Positions 3,173 to 64,000 of a stretch of DNA of 64,000 nt are shown in pieces. The stretch comes from a virus. Position 1 is the first letter of the stretch, and each line of letters opens with the position of its first letter. The DNA lies in the UHGV virus genome UHGV-0037280; one strand, written 5' to 3'. The position numbers and the translations under genes are program-made. The notes under the pieces were generated by a model. That model made no database searches and had not been told where the DNA came from. It saw only the letters and a list, made by a program, of their open reading frames with translations.

Positions 3173-3424
3173 TTAGTTACCGCTGATAGCACGGTTGTAA
3201 TCATTAACGTTGCGATTCTTCCTGTTAATCCCCTTCAGCATCGTTTCTGTATCGAGGATATACGCTGGCAGATCATCAAAATATTCATTGCTAAACTCTG
3301 GCATTCTGCACATAAATGCACTTTTGGGGGCAGGGTGGTTAACCTTTGTCGGCGTCGGCGTTAAATTCGCTGATCGACTCCCGGAGCAACCGCTGAGTGT
3401 CAGCAGGAATGCGCTGGCGAACAT
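3173..3424 (-). CDS. Putative lipoprotein (lipobox LTLSGC); alternative start at 3505
   Basis: Signal-like MFASAFLLTLSGCSG from internal Met; overlaps 3' end of the upstream gene in another frame, so boundaries uncertain. Confidence 0.4.
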   Translation of the reverse strand: MFASAFLLTLSGCSGSRSANLTPTPTKVNHPAPKSAFMCRMPEFSNEYFDDLPAYILDTETMLKGINRKNRNVNDYNRAISGN

Positions 3425-58762: not shown

Positions 58763-58959
58763 ATGTGTAAAAAACGACTGAAAGAAAAGCGGTGGTCCAA
58801 ACGCCAACAAAAGCACGAACTCGCTAAAAAACGCCAAAGTTGGCAATGGCACGCGCTTTTCACGAAAAGAACACCCCGAGATATTGCTTTCGCTGGTGGG
58901 AAAACATTCCTGACCCACCTGAAGGCGCAATACATCAGGTTTTAAGCAGAGGAAAGACT

Positions 58960-59748
58960 ATGACAGCACAAAATACTAAAACAATTCAATACCGCCTGCG
59001 TAATGGCCAGAGTGTCGAAGTGACCGTCAATAATGATGGAGTGCCAGGCGAAAAGGTTTCTATCTCTGATCTGGCTATCGAAAAAACCATCATGTGCCAC
59101 CTTGGCTTTACTGAAGAAGTGAGCAAAAAGCATGGTGTAGCAATCTGGAGCGCAATGGATACTGGTATGCGCAGATTCATTACTGCTCGTACCCCAGGGA
59201 TGACCATGATGGACCTCATGCAGATTGCGCCGCTGTTTGAGTGTGAACCTTTGGATGTATTCAGCAATCCAGCTATCTGCCAGCAGTTATATGGTGAGAT
59301 GAAACTCGCGGTTACCCCCATTGTGCTGCATGAAGGATCGCTTGCTGGCGTATGGAAAGTAGAGCGAATTTCAAGCTACATGCCTTTCCATGTCAACGGC
59401 GTAATCACTGGTGAAAATCAACCTGTTTCCGTTATAAAGTCAGACCTCAAGCGCGCAATTCTTGAAGCAAGTTGTCGAGTTGTCGGCCTGGGCAAACAGT
59501 CTTATGTTTCCTTCCCGGCTGGCCCTGAAGGCCCGGCAGAAATTCTGATTATGGATGCCGATCTGCTCTGGCAAATACAGTTTCTGATTGGCAAAAGCAT
59601 CATCCGCGATGAAGAACTCGATCAGTACATTACCTGCACGATGACGGATGAAGTCAAAAGTGTGGCTATAGCCAATGCCCGGAACCTATGTCGTGCTGCA
59701 TTAACAGAACTGCAAGAAAACACCACGGGAGAAGTGGAAAGTGATTAA
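58960..59748 (+). CDS. Hypothetical protein (262 aa)
   Basis: ATG 58960 with GAGGAAAG upstream. Confidence 0.5.
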   Translation: MTAQNTKTIQYRLRNGQSVEVTVNNDGVPGEKVSISDLAIEKTIMCHLGFTEEVSKKHGVAIWSAMDTGMRRFITARTPGMTMMDLMQIAPLFECEPLDVFSNPAICQQLYGEMKLAVTPIVLHEGSLAGVWKVERISSYMPFHVNGVITGENQPVSVIKSDLKRAILEASCRVVGLGKQSYVSFPAGPEGPAEILIMDADLLWQIQFLIGKSIIRDEELDQYITCTMTDEVKSVAIANARNLCRAALTELQENTTGEVESD

Positions 59749-59749
59749 A

Positions 59750-59780
59750 AAGAACCCGCCAATTGGCGGGTTCTTTATTT
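59750..59780 (+). terminator. Intrinsic terminator (11-bp stem)
   Basis: aagaacccgcc aatt ggcgggttctt tattt. Confidence 0.7.
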
Positions 59781-59994
59781 ATTGAATTAGCATTCAACTC
59801 CCGATTGTTATAGCGAACACTATGTAACAGAATAATATTATTAACATTTTAGTAATAAGTTGATTATTCATCTTCTGTATTCGCAAAGCGTAAGTATTGC
59901 TCATAGTTTCTTATTCCAGTACATTGTGATTCGTTGAGGCAAAAGAATAGTGGCAATTCTACTGGCAATAAACTCAAGTAAGAGGTTGTAAACA

Positions 59995-60282
59995 ATGGAA
60001 AAACTGAACAATTTCTTAGACAAAATATCCACCCCAAACACTCGCGCAGGCCACACTATTACCCGCATAGCTAAGCTAAGCGATGCGGGTGTCAGTGATG
60101 ACGTAATCGCACTTCAACTGTCCAGTAACAGTGCAAATGGCTTCCGATATACAGCAGATGAAATAAAAGCGTATAAGAAGCTCCACAATGATGTAAAAAC
60201 CAAAGTGGGAATTACATCCAAACAAACAAAAGCATTAATCAAAGATCAAGAGCTGACTTTTGTTGCATTGCCTCAAAACTAA
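59995..60282 (+). CDS. Small hypothetical protein in AT-rich islet (95 aa)
   Basis: ATG with AAGAGG upstream; AT-rich flanks. Confidence 0.45.
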   Translation: MEKLNNFLDKISTPNTRAGHTITRIAKLSDAGVSDDVIALQLSSNSANGFRYTADEIKAYKKLHNDVKTKVGITSKQTKALIKDQELTFVALPQN

Positions 60283-60356: not shown

Positions 60357-60485
60357 CTTGTTAAAGATAAGAATATAACCCAAAAGATATACATGGGTTA
60401 TTAAGGCCATAATTATCAGGCAAATAACATGAAGTCGTCTATGTGATGGATGAAATTTGAACAATCAATTCTATGCCAATTCCTG

Positions 60486-60806
60486 TCAATACAAGAGTTG
60501 GTTTACTGTTTCATCACTAAAAACCTCTTCATCGTCATCATCATCCTCATCGCCACCATCTACTGCTGGCCAATCAACAAACCAGCCAGCGTAAAGATGC
60601 AGCGTTCGGAGAACATCACTTGCGGGAGCATCAAGGGTGTTAACGAATCCCATATAGCTATTGGGATTTGCCCCAGCTATGGCTTCAGCGATCATGTCCT
60701 CGGTAATGTCACCGGAGATAATGCTTAAACGCCCGGAAACTTCTTCGTTATCATCAAATTCGATAATGGCATCTCCACCTAATGGCGCTGCGATTTTAAT
60801 CTGCAT
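60486..60806 (-). CDS. Small acidic protein (106 aa)
   Basis: C-terminal DGGDEDDDDDEE; downstream of and overlapping the 995-aa gene. Confidence 0.5.
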   Translation of the reverse strand: MQIKIAAPLGGDAIIEFDDNEEVSGRLSIISGDITEDMIAEAIAGANPNSYMGFVNTLDAPASDVLRTLHLYAGWFVDWPAVDGGDEDDDDDEEVFSDETVNQLLY

Positions 60807-63783
60807 TATTTAGCTCCTTTGCCACACCTAATAACAGTTCCAGCAATCCGTCACCATTCATCAGTGATGCGGCAGCGGCCTCTTTGTCATGATACAACTG
60901 AAGAGCCATAGAGAATACTTCCGTTGCTGACGTTTTGGAAATAGTCGGTGATTTCTGCCGAATTTTCCCGGTGTTACTTACTGAGGCTGGTGGGTATACC
61001 TTCGCCATATAAATATTACTCAATCGAGATCTGAAGCACCATTCAGGCTTGCCACGCCCACCGATATTAACGAAAGATGGTTTATCCCCTTCAACATTGG
61101 CCTTCAGGAATGACCGGGCTTTCTCTAACAAACCAGGGTTACTGTACTCAAGATGATGACCCAGCTCGTGCCACAGTGCACTTGCAGTTTCATCGTTCAA
61201 ATTGACAGCAACAACACCATTAAGATTTGCATACGCCCTACCCTTGTGGTGAATTACCCTTGATAAGGTTGATATTTTCCCGCCGGTCAGGCGATAAATA
61301 TCAGCAAGTTCCTTGCGCAGGTCTATTCCACCATTCTGTCCAGCGCGGGCTTCTTCCACTTCTTCCGTGATAAAAGAGTCGGCCCACTCAAGAGCTTTTT
61401 CTTCAGATACGGATGAGTTGGCAATCGCACTGTTCATGGCAGATAACACTTTCTCGTGGACCGAACCCATACTTTGCTGATTCATTTGCCAGCGTGTCTG
61501 CGGGTTATATGAGAATCGCTTAAGTAGTTGGTCAAGCTGCTCAAGTTCTTCTTCACTGACATACCTTTTAGCCTCACCAATAATGCCAGGGAGAATATTG
61601 CCGTTAGGATTAAACGCTCGCGAAAGGAAGAGTTTCAGCGCCCCCATGCCCTCCGATGCTTCAATATCACCAATAACCCGGTTAACAATGGCCGCACTCT
61701 TCGGATTAGCATCCGCCAACGCTCTGGCTACGATTTGCAGGGACGATACGACCTCACGCTGCATATCAGTCCTGATCTCATCAATAAACTCTGGCGTTAT
61801 GCCGTGCTCTTTAAGGATATCCCGGCCTTCCGCCGTTACCCCATCGATATCACCGACATGTTTATTAACACGACTTTGCAATGCCTTAAATGCCTTCAGA
61901 ATTCCACGGGCATCATCCGCTTTACTAACGGCCTTCCTGAATGCTGGCAAGAAGTCTGAGTTAACCTCATTTTGTTGATCGGCCCACTGAATGGAGGCTT
62001 CCTTCATCTCGTCCAGAGTCAGATCACCCAACGCGGTATGGTCTGTGAATATGAGCGATAACCTCTGAACCATTTCTGCCAATGGTGATGCCGAATGCGC
62101 CGCGCTAAGGAATGCTTTCACCCTGGTTGGGCGAATGGAAAACCAGTCAATAGCTGGTGGCATATCTCCGTTTTTTATCGCCTGCGCTATCTCGTCAAAG
62201 CCATCGCGCCCAAGGGAGGATGCGTGATTTAACAAGCCGCGAAGTAACGAATTGCTGATACCGAATAATCGGCACCATTTTTTCACGTCGGCAACAGGCA
62301 TTCGAACAAAATGCGCAAGCACTTGTACAAGCTGTTCATCCTGGGGATCTGTGCGGGAAAGCAGCCTGATCAGATGAATAATGTCTTTGATGCCGGATGC
62401 CCGATGTAATAGCAAACTGGTATACGGAGCAACACCGTTGTAACTACCGCCGGAAACGGACTCGAAAAGACCGCCGGATATCCCTTGCATGCCTTCGTTT
62501 TCCAGTTCCTGAGACACCTGGCGAAGGATATCCTGTAACGACACATCGCCTCCGCCAAACATATCCCCCAGCGCCTGGCCCTGGTGCTGTAACTCATCAT
62601 TGATACGTTGAGCCATCAACTTAAAGGCGGTGGCCATACGCTTCGCGCTACGGTTATTCGCGACGATGAACAACGCGAGTGCTTTCACTTCCGGGGCCGT
62701 TTCGCTGAACATATCCCCCTGAGCAATAACATCGGTAATATGCTGGCCTGACTCCTTCGATTGCCTTACCAGGTCTACCGCATCTTTCAATGCCACCAGC
62801 GCCTTTTTATCGAGGCTATCCGCTGTCTCAATGCCATCAACAATAGTTGTCACAGCCTGCTTGTGCGCTTCTCCTGATAAAGCCTGCATCTGGACAAAAT
62901 CATTGGCTGCCGCATTAAGCGCCGTCAGAACATTACGCATATCCGGATCAGGTTCTTCTGCAACCATCCTTACCAGGCGCGCATCCTTATATGCCTTGGC
63001 AAAGATCGCGTTTTGTATACGGTCTACAAGTTGCCGTGTTGGTCGCCCATCTTCAGTTACAAGGCCAGCCGCCTGTGTGGCACCAACTTGCGTCATAAAT
63101 CCGCGAATAAACGCGTCATTACTGCGGCTAAGCAGATCTCCGCTTTCTGACGGGTTAAAAAGCGCCATCATCGCCGGTGTTATGCTGTCGGCATCAACAA
63201 AAGCCTTTTCACTGGCTGCCATTTCCTGAAGATCAGAAATATTTGAGTCCTTGGCAAACTGAACGCGGTCAACCTTAGTTAACCGGCGGCGCACCAGTAC
63301 CGGAGCCGTCATTGATTCAACCTTTTCAGGTCGTATGCCGAATTCGGTCGCATGTTCAATCAGGTACTCACGATACCGATCCGCATTGCCGTCCTGATAG
63401 GCTTTGATGATCCCCATGGTCCGCCCATTACCTGACTCAACGGCATTGTCCTCACCAATTATCGGCGCGCCATGGCTGGATAAACCGGAATCGGTAAGCT
63501 GGGCAGGACGCAAATCCTTGGATATCTGGTTGACCTGAAGAAGGCTGGATGCGCGGGTCCGGTCGCGCGGCTGAAGTTCCTGGGGATAGTCTGGATTAAT
63601 TTTCCCATCCAGAGTATTGGATACCAAAAGAGCTGAGGCATCGACGATATCAAACGCCGTTTTTACCTCGTCTCCCTTCGCTGTCACCACATACGAAACC
63701 CGCCCGTAATCGGGCAGGTTCTTTAGCAGCTCGATCAGCGTTTCTATGCTGGTGGCCATAACCACCTGATCGCTTAAGCTCAT
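60796..63783 (-). CDS. Large dar-operon-type protein (995 aa), DdrB-like by size and position
   Basis: ATG complement of 63781-63783; no catalytic motif recognised; assignment from size and neighbourhood only. Confidence 0.5.
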   Translation of the reverse strand: MSLSDQVVMATSIETLIELLKNLPDYGRVSYVVTAKGDEVKTAFDIVDASALLVSNTLDGKINPDYPQELQPRDRTRASSLLQVNQISKDLRPAQLTDSGLSSHGAPIIGEDNAVESGNGRTMGIIKAYQDGNADRYREYLIEHATEFGIRPEKVESMTAPVLVRRRLTKVDRVQFAKDSNISDLQEMAASEKAFVDADSITPAMMALFNPSESGDLLSRSNDAFIRGFMTQVGATQAAGLVTEDGRPTRQLVDRIQNAIFAKAYKDARLVRMVAEEPDPDMRNVLTALNAAANDFVQMQALSGEAHKQAVTTIVDGIETADSLDKKALVALKDAVDLVRQSKESGQHITDVIAQGDMFSETAPEVKALALFIVANNRSAKRMATAFKLMAQRINDELQHQGQALGDMFGGGDVSLQDILRQVSQELENEGMQGISGGLFESVSGGSYNGVAPYTSLLLHRASGIKDIIHLIRLLSRTDPQDEQLVQVLAHFVRMPVADVKKWCRLFGISNSLLRGLLNHASSLGRDGFDEIAQAIKNGDMPPAIDWFSIRPTRVKAFLSAAHSASPLAEMVQRLSLIFTDHTALGDLTLDEMKEASIQWADQQNEVNSDFLPAFRKAVSKADDARGILKAFKALQSRVNKHVGDIDGVTAEGRDILKEHGITPEFIDEIRTDMQREVVSSLQIVARALADANPKSAAIVNRVIGDIEASEGMGALKLFLSRAFNPNGNILPGIIGEAKRYVSEEELEQLDQLLKRFSYNPQTRWQMNQQSMGSVHEKVLSAMNSAIANSSVSEEKALEWADSFITEEVEEARAGQNGGIDLRKELADIYRLTGGKISTLSRVIHHKGRAYANLNGVVAVNLNDETASALWHELGHHLEYSNPGLLEKARSFLKANVEGDKPSFVNIGGRGKPEWCFRSRLSNIYMAKVYPPASVSNTGKIRQKSPTISKTSATEVFSMALQLYHDKEAAAASLMNGDGLLELLLGVAKELNNAD

Positions 63784-63804
63784 CCCTGTTACGCCTTATC
63801 CAAT

Positions 63805-64000
63805 GTGCCGCTCCCCACGCTCCTCATAGTGGGGATATAAGGCACAGTTTTCCTCCCGGCTATTTTTGCTTAAAATAGTGACATGAAACAACAGGTGTCA
63901 TTCAAATTCCGATTAAGACCAGATGGTCAACAGGAGCGTGAAATGAGGCGCTTCGCAGGCGCATGTCGTTTCGTTTTCAATCGTGCTCTGGCGCTTCAGA
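63805..64000 (+). mobile_element. IS200/IS605-family element, left end with tnpB start (partial)
   Basis: Subterminal hairpin tccccac gctcctcata gtgggga at 63805-63830; tnpB-like N-terminus follows. Confidence 0.5.
63883..64000 (+). CDS. TnpB (OrfB)-like transposase-associated protein, N-terminal fragment running off window end
   Basis: MKQQVSFKFRLRPDGQQEREMRRFAGACRFVFNRALALQ matches the TnpB N-terminal signature (FK-R-YP-Q, RFVYN-AL). Confidence 0.6.
   Translation, partial: MKQQVSFKFRLRPDGQQEREMRRFAGACRFVFNRALALQ

Follow-up and report, generated by a model that had tools for sequence, protein, structure and literature searches.

An IS609-like tnpB element next to ddrB in a P1-like phage-plasmid

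The window analyzed here, a stretch of 64,000 nucleotides of the virus genome UHGV-0037280, is part of a P1-like phage-plasmid. Its end carries the minus-strand genes hxr and ddrB, followed by the left end (LE) of an IS element and the beginning of a tnpB gene (Table 1). The original prediction for this region had noted a 995-aa open reading frame (ORF) of dar-operon type, and both the ORF with its ATG start and this assignment could be confirmed. The encoded protein aligns with P1 DdrB over the full length and without gaps, 978 of 995 residues being identical (98%), and the ddrB region shows 98% nucleotide identity to P1. Judged by this similarity, the 995-aa protein is DdrB of phage P1. It is not devoid of recognizable motifs, as had been stated before, since besides the full-length similarity also the DdrB-ParB domain and a C-terminal HExxH motif are present. 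The DdrB-like ParB domain was described by Iyer et al. 2017 (PMC5512222), from which also the metallopeptidase domain assignment for the HELGH region was taken, and the P1 record annotates ddrB as 'possible metallopeptidase'. Compared with the P1 darA operon (Lobocka 2004 annotation), the window is alike not only in DdrB but also in the 11-nt overlap of hxr and ddrB. Hxr had no Pfam match, nor had either of two ORFs located between ssb and hxr. The coordinate 60486, from which the region of the original prediction starts, is the stop end of hxr and not of ddrB.

Table 1. Features at the end of the window (positions in the 64,000-nt stretch).
Feature	Position	Strand	Remarks
hxr (106-aa ORF), downstream of ddrB	60486–60806	−	Named Hxr in P1, RCS47 and SJ46 at the matching place
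ddrB	60796–63783	−	Intact, 995 aa; P1 internal head protein (Dar anti-restriction)
HELGH zincin motif of DdrB (aa 872)	61156–61170	−	Sole HExxH in the protein
132-aa ORF within ddrB, opposite strand	62831–63229	+	Doubtful gene; position matches the P1 iddB annotation only
DdrB-like ParB superfamily domain (aa 36–167)	63283–63678	−	Pfam PF18763, E = 1.6e-39, 135 bits vs. cut-off of 27.6
ddrB leader, retained	63784–63799	−	TAAGG Shine-Dalgarno-like on minus strand; last 4 nt on plus strand TTAT
Left end (LE) of IS609-like element, 83 nt	63800–63882	+	Two-tier subterminal hairpin 63804–63846; junction identical in 20 other loci
tnpB, 5′ part (first 39 codons)	63883–64000	+	ATG at 63883; antisense to dar operon; runs off the window

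Similarity to P1 ends exactly after the tetranucleotide TTAT (63796–63799), and the IS starts with the next base, leaving 16 nt between it and the ATG of ddrB. The outer stem of the LE hairpin is formed by TGTGCC (63804–63809) and GGCACA (63841–63846), the inner stem by TCCCCAC (63812–63818) and GTGGGGA (63829–63835). The hairpin proposed before is thus real, while its placement at 63805–63830 was slightly off. As single-stranded DNA it folds with −11.2 kcal/mol (z = −3.76), and none of 200 shuffled sequences folded equally well. Also, a 35-nt string of the LE occurred once in the window and never in shuffled sequences. The 39 tnpB codons match the Pfam family HTH_OrfB_IS605 (PF12323) with an E-value of 2.1e-14, better than the curated cut-off, which supports the expectation of a tnpB-like ORF of IS200/IS605 type running off the window. 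Altogether, the last 201 nt of the window belong to the IS and are of variant A type, like the loci L003, L004 and L007 over these 201 nt. The right end (RE) of the IS and the 3′ end of ddrA were searched for in the window, and neither was found. TTAT represents the target and cleavage tetranucleotide of the IS and presumably the TAM of its TnpB; chromosomal IS609 left ends are likewise preceded by TTAT.

The course of the element beyond position 64000 and the upstream operon were inferred from relatives that are 96–99.8% identical over the junction. Those extending further all carry a tnpB-only IS609-like element of 1335 bp; they comprise RCS47 and SJ46, six plasmid loci that were read in detail, and nine contigs from IMG/VR. 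The same LE junction is shared by 20 of 20 IS-bearing loci, and the 17 that extend to the RE also agree in the junction there. The element is composed of the LE hairpin, a tnpB gene (402 aa, of the RNA-guided nuclease type) and an RE hairpin, the latter with z = −3.30 in RCS47 and weaker in variant A (z = −0.93). No tnpA is present in the 1335 bp, and thus the element lacks the TnpA (Y1 HUH transposase) of autonomous IS200/IS605 elements. Since it contains only tnpB, it is a non-autonomous, IS1341-style tnpB-only member of the IS200/IS605 family. In agreement with this family, there are subterminal hairpins at both ends and no terminal inverted repeats, and insertion took place 3′ of TTAT without duplication. 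This became evident from the comparison of P1 (TTAT/GCTGCC) with IS-bearing genomes (TTAT/CCAATG...GTCAC/GCTGCC), in which no repeat and hence no target-site duplication is found.

In the relatives, the IS is located precisely within the 12-bp spacer of ddrA and ddrB, extending the distance between both genes from 12 bp in P1 to 1347 bp. It is thereby placed, in antisense orientation, within the late operon lydA-lydB-hdf-darA-ddrA-ddrB-hxr. The insertion point lies one base inside the last sense codon of ddrA. Because the right end of the IS (...GTCAC) restores this codon as GCG in place of GCA, which likewise encodes Ala, and also provides a stop codon (TGA), DdrA is unchanged. For the genome analyzed here, the remaining approximately 1134 bp of the IS beyond the window would accordingly be expected to end with ...GGAGGATGTCAC, followed by GCTGCCTCTTTAATG and the genes ddrA-darA-hdf-lydB-lydA.

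In the full-length TnpB of the relatives, the Pfam families PF12323, PF01385 (OrfB_IS605) and PF07282 (Cas12f1-like_TNB) were all detected above their cut-offs. TnpB of ISDra2 (PDB 8BF8/8EXA), the prototype of the RNA-guided nucleases and a distant homologue, has the same domain order and could be aligned over residues 5–372 (E = 9.5e-51). Thereby, the motifs GLDAG, VIEDL and ANADVN were found to correspond to the catalytic D/E/D of ISDra2 TnpB (D191, E278 and D361), and the zinc finger (CxxC...CxxC) was aligned too. The two proteins would differ in their TAM, which is TTGAT in ISDra2 and would be TTAT here. The full 402 aa are encoded in 16 of 17 good copies of tnpB, and dN/dS ranges from 0.14 to 0.18. 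On the basis of these sequence comparisons, tnpB is intact and under purifying selection, and the IS represents a natural case of a tnpB that has been kept intact for long without a transposase.

The region of tnpB and RE shows 93.5–95.7% nucleotide identity to copies of chromosomal insQ, which 5014 of 5426 E. coli genomes contain. With IS609 of Escherichia coli (insP/insQ), the element shares the RE hairpin and the subsequent 10 nt as well as the motif GGGGATATAAGGCxCxGTTTTCC. The chromosomal IS609 LE has the same architecture with a two-tier hairpin (L006) and the TTAT target; its stems consist of different bases that still pair, and the two left ends are only loosely similar in sequence. 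Further differences are the RE terminus, which is TCAC instead of TCAA in IS609, and the divergent, often defective tnpA located just upstream of the chromosomal tnpB, which is absent here. As the LE deviates from that of IS609 and tnpA is absent, 'IS609-like derivative' is the safe label. IS609 or IS609-like elements have been reported in P1-like plasmids by Venturini et al. (2019, PMC6906374). There, TTAT and TCAA are named as the cleavage sites of the copy of IS609 that pJIE250-3 carries, while the position of the 'IS609-like sequence' of pSvP1 could only be inferred from the coordinates provided. RCS47 (FO818745), SJ46 (KU760857) and vB_EcoM-813R1 have identical ddrB/ddrA junctions and the 1335-bp layout, the gene being annotated as insQ or transposase IS605; RCS47 carries variant B of the IS, whereas the window carries variant A. 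The feature is thus already known, as the records of RCS47 and SJ46 show insQ at the same position, and partly published. As it stands, this passenger IS annotated in published P1-like genomes next to a known P1 protein matters little.

In the original prediction, it was suggested that the IS end could have displaced upstream dar genes or could supply an outward promoter, and indeed the IS separates ddrB from the operon promoter. In the relatives with the identical junction, however, no operon member is displaced: in all eight annotated loci, the IS is followed by ddrA (366 nt) and darA, and where reading was continued, in three loci, hdf, lydB and lydA were intact as well. That the operon would turn out to be intact upstream and the IS to be intergenic had been named beforehand as the finding that would speak against displacement, and this was observed in all of these relatives. 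With their gene order lydA-lydB-hdf-darA-ddrA and their LPdar promoter, the relatives also resemble the P1 darA operon (Piya 2017 as cited in PMC12810830). With respect to an outward promoter, one sigma-70-like match points toward ddrB (ATGACA-18-TATTTT, minus strand, about 63901–63872), but this single match is within the range of shuffled sequences (1.7 ± 1.0), and the scan of the IS for sigma-70 promoters and terminators yielded nothing beyond shuffles. When LPdar and LPlyz were used to define a P1 late-promoter motif, these two known promoters were its only matches; it was absent in or beside the IS, and none was found between LPdar and ddrB even when one mismatch was allowed. We therefore regard both displacement and an outward promoter as highly improbable. 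Instead, ddrB and hxr would be transcribed by read-through that starts at LPdar and passes over 1.3 kb of IS sequence, which is antisense and untranslated. Expression is probably lowered, as the coupling to ddrA is lost, Rho polarity may act, and tnpB and omega-RNA would be transcribed convergently; this would be tolerated because ddrB is non-essential (PMC10695390). In addition to the window, ddrB is intact in seven of eight IS-bearing loci.

Of 5426 complete E. coli genomes, 64 harbor the LE, in each case on a plasmid and never on the chromosome, and a search for the exact LE 32-mer in the GTDB representative genomes gave no hit. No second LE site was found in these data; an apparent one in NZ_CP029117.1 is explained by an overlap in the assembly of this linear record, which is rich in errors. 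Among the plasmids of PLSDB, 75 carry the ddrB-IS junction and 357 the uninterrupted site. The IS (about 17%) can serve as a clean marker by which IS-bearing lineages of P1-like phage-plasmids, about one in six, are distinguished from IS-free lineages. The IS variants A and B differ by 3.7% and the flanks by 1.5–2%. These variant differences occur in blocks, some copies are recombinant, and in L009 there is a patch resembling chromosomal IS609. Comparison of IS-bearing and empty copies revealed no fixed flank differences within 1200 bp on either side, the flanks being fully mosaic, a pattern compatible with a single origin as well as with homing. We are quite confident that the element is a passenger IS609-like IS between ddrA and ddrB of a P1-like phage-plasmid which left the operon intact and probably derives from one old insertion. 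Worded as a history, the IS would have inserted once in the P1 lineage, would since have spread onto many backbone variants by homologous recombination, would have undergone gene conversion in blocks with other copies of IS609, and would no longer be able to transpose by itself. Regarding the single origin, A and B diverge about twice as much as the flanks do, which repeated homing, or replacement by different variants of IS609, could have produced too.

That different P1-like elements acquired the IS independently of each other, at a transposition hot spot, would be in line with the larger divergence of the IS variants compared with their flanks and with the fact that TnpA-type targeting needs TTAT only. 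The tetranucleotide is, however, far too common to explain a repeated, base-exact site, the LE occurs nowhere else in the chromosomal and GTDB data described above, tnpA is missing, the LE hairpin sequences of chromosomal IS609 differ, and the differences between the variants are block-wise, which makes independent insertions very unlikely. Another idea is that tnpB was domesticated as a nuclease-dead, TldR-like RNA-guided repressor of the dar operon, for which its antisense location within the operon and a guide that would pair with the ddrA 3′ end region could be put forward. Here, the dead-nuclease reading was rejected, as the RuvC Asp/Glu/Asp are intact; the zinc-finger cysteines are present too, the protein is of full length, the transposon ends are intact, and on an IS-bearing genome TAM and target are split by the IS. 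We consider such a repressor extremely unlikely.

For ISDra2 and IS605-type TnpB, a mechanism in which the guide originates from the RE flank and the TAM corresponds to the LE target has reportedly been established (Karvelis 2021, Altae-Tran 2021, Meers 2023). By this family rule, the guide of the omega-RNA would be the 16–20 nt after the right end (GCTGCCTCTTTAATGT...), and TTAT plus guide would be exactly the uninterrupted P1 site between ddrA and ddrB. The empty site of P1 reads TTAT followed by GCTGCCTCTTTAATGTTGGC. The 3′ region of tnpB together with the RE folds moderately better than shuffled sequences (z = −2.46) and is thus structured, as the scaffold of the predicted omega-RNA would be. 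An Rfam search with the whole element detected no family at threshold, RAGATH-18 remaining below it with 28 bits versus a gathering score of 44.9, and this hit was given no weight.

From these features a working homing or exclusion device can be conceived, in which TnpB and omega-RNA would cut IS-free P1 relatives at TTAT/GCTGCCTCTTTAATGT and a P1-like genome that superinfects or is co-resident would be destroyed or repaired with the IS-bearing copy as template, so that the IS would spread among P1-like genomes without a transposase. An intact tnpB with catalytic residues and low dN/dS in spite of the missing tnpA, a predicted target which equals the exact empty site and whose first 10 nt are invariant in all eight empty-site genomes examined, and the occurrence of the IS on many recombinant backgrounds without fixed flank differences and in about 17% of the P1-like plasmids are in favor of such a device. 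Against it, ordinary recombination among P1-like plasmids gives the same population pattern, purifying selection may come via gene conversion from chromosomal IS609 copies, and 83% of the P1-like plasmids are IS-free, unlike what an efficient drive would leave behind. We therefore judge a working device to be unlikely. The more specific proposal that the tnpA-less element is kept because its omega-RNA is permanently aimed at the uninterrupted ddrA-ddrB junction, so that competing P1-like genomes would face an RNA-guided weapon or a gene drive, is speculative and improbable. If TnpB were active on the empty site, this would mean RNA-guided competition or homing between phage-plasmids, and, provided that the weapon or drive reading is true, JL22 (a T-to-C variant) and phi456, in which target position 11 shows a change from K to E, could possibly carry an escape allele.

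A megablast comparison of 60400-64000 with phage genomes matched P1, P7 and other Punavirus genomes at 98% identity, with ddrB, hxr and ddrA annotated beneath the matches. Further P1 landmarks elsewhere in the window were three tRNAs, a 2255-aa ORF of darB size, a lysozyme gene and an ssb gene. The 995-aa ORF, originally described as a dar-operon-type gene without recognisable motif, is by its sequence DdrB itself and does carry such motifs, since it is identical to P1 DdrB at 978 of 995 positions without gaps and contains a Pfam ddrB-ParB domain (aa 36-167, E = 1.6e-39) and a single HExxH motif (HELGH, aa 872). The latter belongs to the C-terminal zincin-like peptidase domain described by Iyer et al. 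(PMC5512222). An antisense 132-aa ORF within ddrB (62831-63229, plus strand) corresponds to the P1 annotation 'iddB' and is doubtful as a gene. Between ssb and hxr, in variable region RD-2 (Venturini et al. 2019), P1 has isaA-IS1-isaB and SJ46-like plasmids a DUF2829 protein, whereas the window has ORFs of 302 aa and 95 aa (58840-60282, plus strand), neither with a Pfam match. Left of ~60529, the window is closer to phage vB_EcoM-Ro157c2YLVW than to SJ46 or RCS47.

The similarity of P1-type genomes stopped at position 3400 of the megablast query, and RCS47, SJ46 and vB_EcoM-813R1 matched through to the window end. In a three-way alignment, window, RCS47 and P1 were colinear as far as ...GTTACGCCTTAT, after which window and RCS47 read CCAATGTGCC... 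and P1 reads GCTGCCTCTTTAATG. Because this alignment breaks after TTAT (63796-63799), the element begins immediately 3′ of this motif at 63800, 16 nt upstream of the ddrB ATG. As single-stranded DNA, its left end (LE) folds into a two-tier hairpin (z = −3.76) that was equalled in 0 of 200 shuffles, and the tnpB codons within the window matched HTH_OrfB_IS605 with E = 2.1e-14. The predicted tnpB-type IS end beside the 995-aa ORF was thereby confirmed, both neighbours having been named correctly and only small coordinate corrections being required (element from 63800, hairpin 63804-63846).

Features of the ddrB region and the in-window part of the element
Feature	Position in window	Strand	Basis
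hxr, 106-aa ORF downstream of ddrB	60486-60806	minus	ORF list; annotation under phage match
ddrB, 995 aa	60796-63783	minus	ORF list; P1 DdrB match
LE two-tier hairpin	63804-63809 / 63841-63846 and 63812-63818 / 63829-63835		ssDNA fold
tnpB, first 39 codons	start 63883		Pfam HTH_OrfB_IS605

The complete element of RCS47 (L001:9272 to 10606, 1335 bp) has a single gene, which codes for a TnpB of 402 aa with OrfB_IS605 and Zn-ribbon domains. It ends with ...CCACGCCCTTCGGGGCGTGGAGGATGTCAC, followed at once by the sequence that in P1 comes after TTAT (GCTGCCTCTTTAATG), and no target duplication was present at the two junctions when RCS47 was compared with P1. The P1 ddrA stop codon corresponds to the complement of TTA within TTAT, and the insertion falls one base inside the final sense codon. 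The element's right end (RE) rebuilds this codon, with GCA becoming GCG (both Ala), and provides a TGA stop; therefore, ddrA keeps its 366 nt. The left junction was identical in all 20 IS-bearing loci fetched, including 12 IMG/VR contigs retrieved by an LE 32-mer, as was the right junction in all 17 loci reaching it. A displacement of upstream operon members by the IS is contradicted by the relatives: ddrA and darA come next after the IS in 8/8 annotated loci (RCS47, two Salmonella plasmids, four E. coli plasmids, and one E. albertii plasmid), and hdf, lydB, and lydA were intact in the three loci read further upstream. Such an intact operon beyond the IS is the outcome that the original prediction had itself named as refuting displacement.

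For the search of promoters, a P1 late-promoter motif was built from LPdar, the late promoter of the dar operon, and LPlyz. With one mismatch allowed, it matched nothing in the 14.5-kb IS-bearing locus beyond LPdar and LPlyz themselves. A sigma-70 scan gave one match towards ddrB versus 1.7 in shuffles, and terminator-like sites were not enriched in the same scan. The suggested outward IS promoter was thus not found either, and the proposed consequences of the insertion are not supported. Since no other late-promoter match was present and sigma-70 matches were not above shuffles, ddrB and hxr would be reached via read-through from LPdar over 1.3 kb of untranslated antisense IS. The IS would also remove the translational coupling of ddrB to ddrA, and tnpB transcription would be convergent with the operon, so that somewhat reduced ddrB and hxr expression is likely. 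Lower ddrB expression should be tolerable because CRISPRi and previous genetics showed ddrB to be non-essential (PMC10695390). The gene is intact in the window and in seven of eight IS-bearing loci; the sole broken copy, in the SJ46-like Salmonella Indiana plasmid NZ_CP031191 (L003:4501-7300), is frameshifted by a 1-nt deletion with a stop at ~aa 470. As the element is a member of a well-understood family and the operon is not disrupted, its interest is low.

Of 5426 complete E. coli genomes, 5014 contain chromosomal insQ/IS609 copies, which share 93.5-95.7% identity with tnpB and RE of the element. Their LE also lies 3′ of TTAT and has a common core (GGGGATATAAGGCxCxGTTTTCC) and the same two-tier hairpin, although the stem bases differ. 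Their RE terminates in TCAA instead of TCAC, and they have a divergently oriented tnpA just upstream of tnpB, whereas the P1-borne element is without tnpA. ISDra2 TnpB (8BF8) aligns with the element's TnpB (E = 9.5e-51); the RuvC Asp/Glu/Asp positions are conserved, and so are both CxxC pairs. On the basis of tnpB and RE identity, LE architecture with TTAT, the TnpB alignment and tnpB as only gene, the element is classified as an IS609-like, tnpA-less member of the IS200/IS605 family. The RCS47 and SJ46 records already carry an annotation for it, and published work covers it in part: for P1-like plasmids, Venturini et al. (PMC6906374) reported both IS609, with TTAT and TCAA as cleavage sites, and an 'IS609-like sequence'. 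In both chromosomal IS609 copies inspected (E. coli, L005:1986-2477 and L006:2052-2477), tnpA is a pseudogene, with an internal stop in one and a truncation in the other, next to an intact insQ/tnpB. A sub-threshold match to RAGATH-18 of Rfam within the tnpB 3′ end (L003:8519-8562, plus strand; 28.1 bits, gathering score 44.9, E = 0.011) could correspond to a hairpin in the putative omega-RNA scaffold.

The exact LE was detected in 64 of the 5426 complete E. coli genomes, where every copy was on a P1-sized plasmid and none on a chromosome; no GTDB representative genome contained it. PLSDB contained 75 records with the ddrB-IS junction versus 357 with the uninterrupted ddrA-ddrB junction; among phage records, three distinct phages had the IS and 14 records the empty site. 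A second IS copy in NZ_CP029117.1 (L024:1-1850) was rejected as an assembly overlap, as this linear record begins with a repeated, heavily frameshifted tnpB-ddrA region.

The IS copies form two variants, A and B, of 96.3% identity, with less divergent flanks (98-99%); the window has variant A over its 201 nt. The 50 differences are distributed block-wise, one variant or the other agreeing with chromosomal IS609 in each block, and the IS-bearing relatives L004 and L008 are recombinants between both. In E. coli plasmid pLH10-b-1-B (L009:2801-4120), tnpB has lost 15 nt in frame (397 aa) and contains a ~65-nt patch identical to chromosomal IS609, a direct trace of plasmid/chromosome gene conversion. 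Comparing 19 (left) or 16 (right) IS-bearing with 8 empty-site flanks, we found no fixed differences within 1200 bp on either side, and polymorphisms common to both groups started ≤14 bp from the junction. In our reading, a single old insertion was later reshuffled by extensive homologous recombination and gene conversion; repeated homing is conceivable as an alternative history.

In ISDra2 and IS605-type TnpB, the omega-RNA takes its guide from the sequence immediately flanking RE, and the TAM, the short motif required beside the target, is the LE target. Applied to this element, the rule yields TTAT followed by GCTGCCTCTTTAATGT..., exactly the uninterrupted P1 site. Target bases 1-10 were invariant in all eight empty-site genomes examined; position 11 is changed from T to C in two of them, JL22 (L028) and phi456 (L029). 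Furthermore, 16 of 17 good copies of tnpB encode the complete 402-aa protein, and its dN/dS between the variants is 0.14-0.18. A role of tnpB in homing or exclusion at the empty P1 site nevertheless appears improbable from this analysis. An intact, selected tnpB without tnpA would suit such a role, but conversion by the abundant chromosomal IS609 copies would account for it equally well. Our literature search found no paper linking TnpB with P1-like phage-plasmids. The T-to-C exchange of JL22 and phi456, which lies within ddrA at 11 nt from the empty junction, replaces Lys by Glu in DdrA and may represent either neutral variation or an escape allele.
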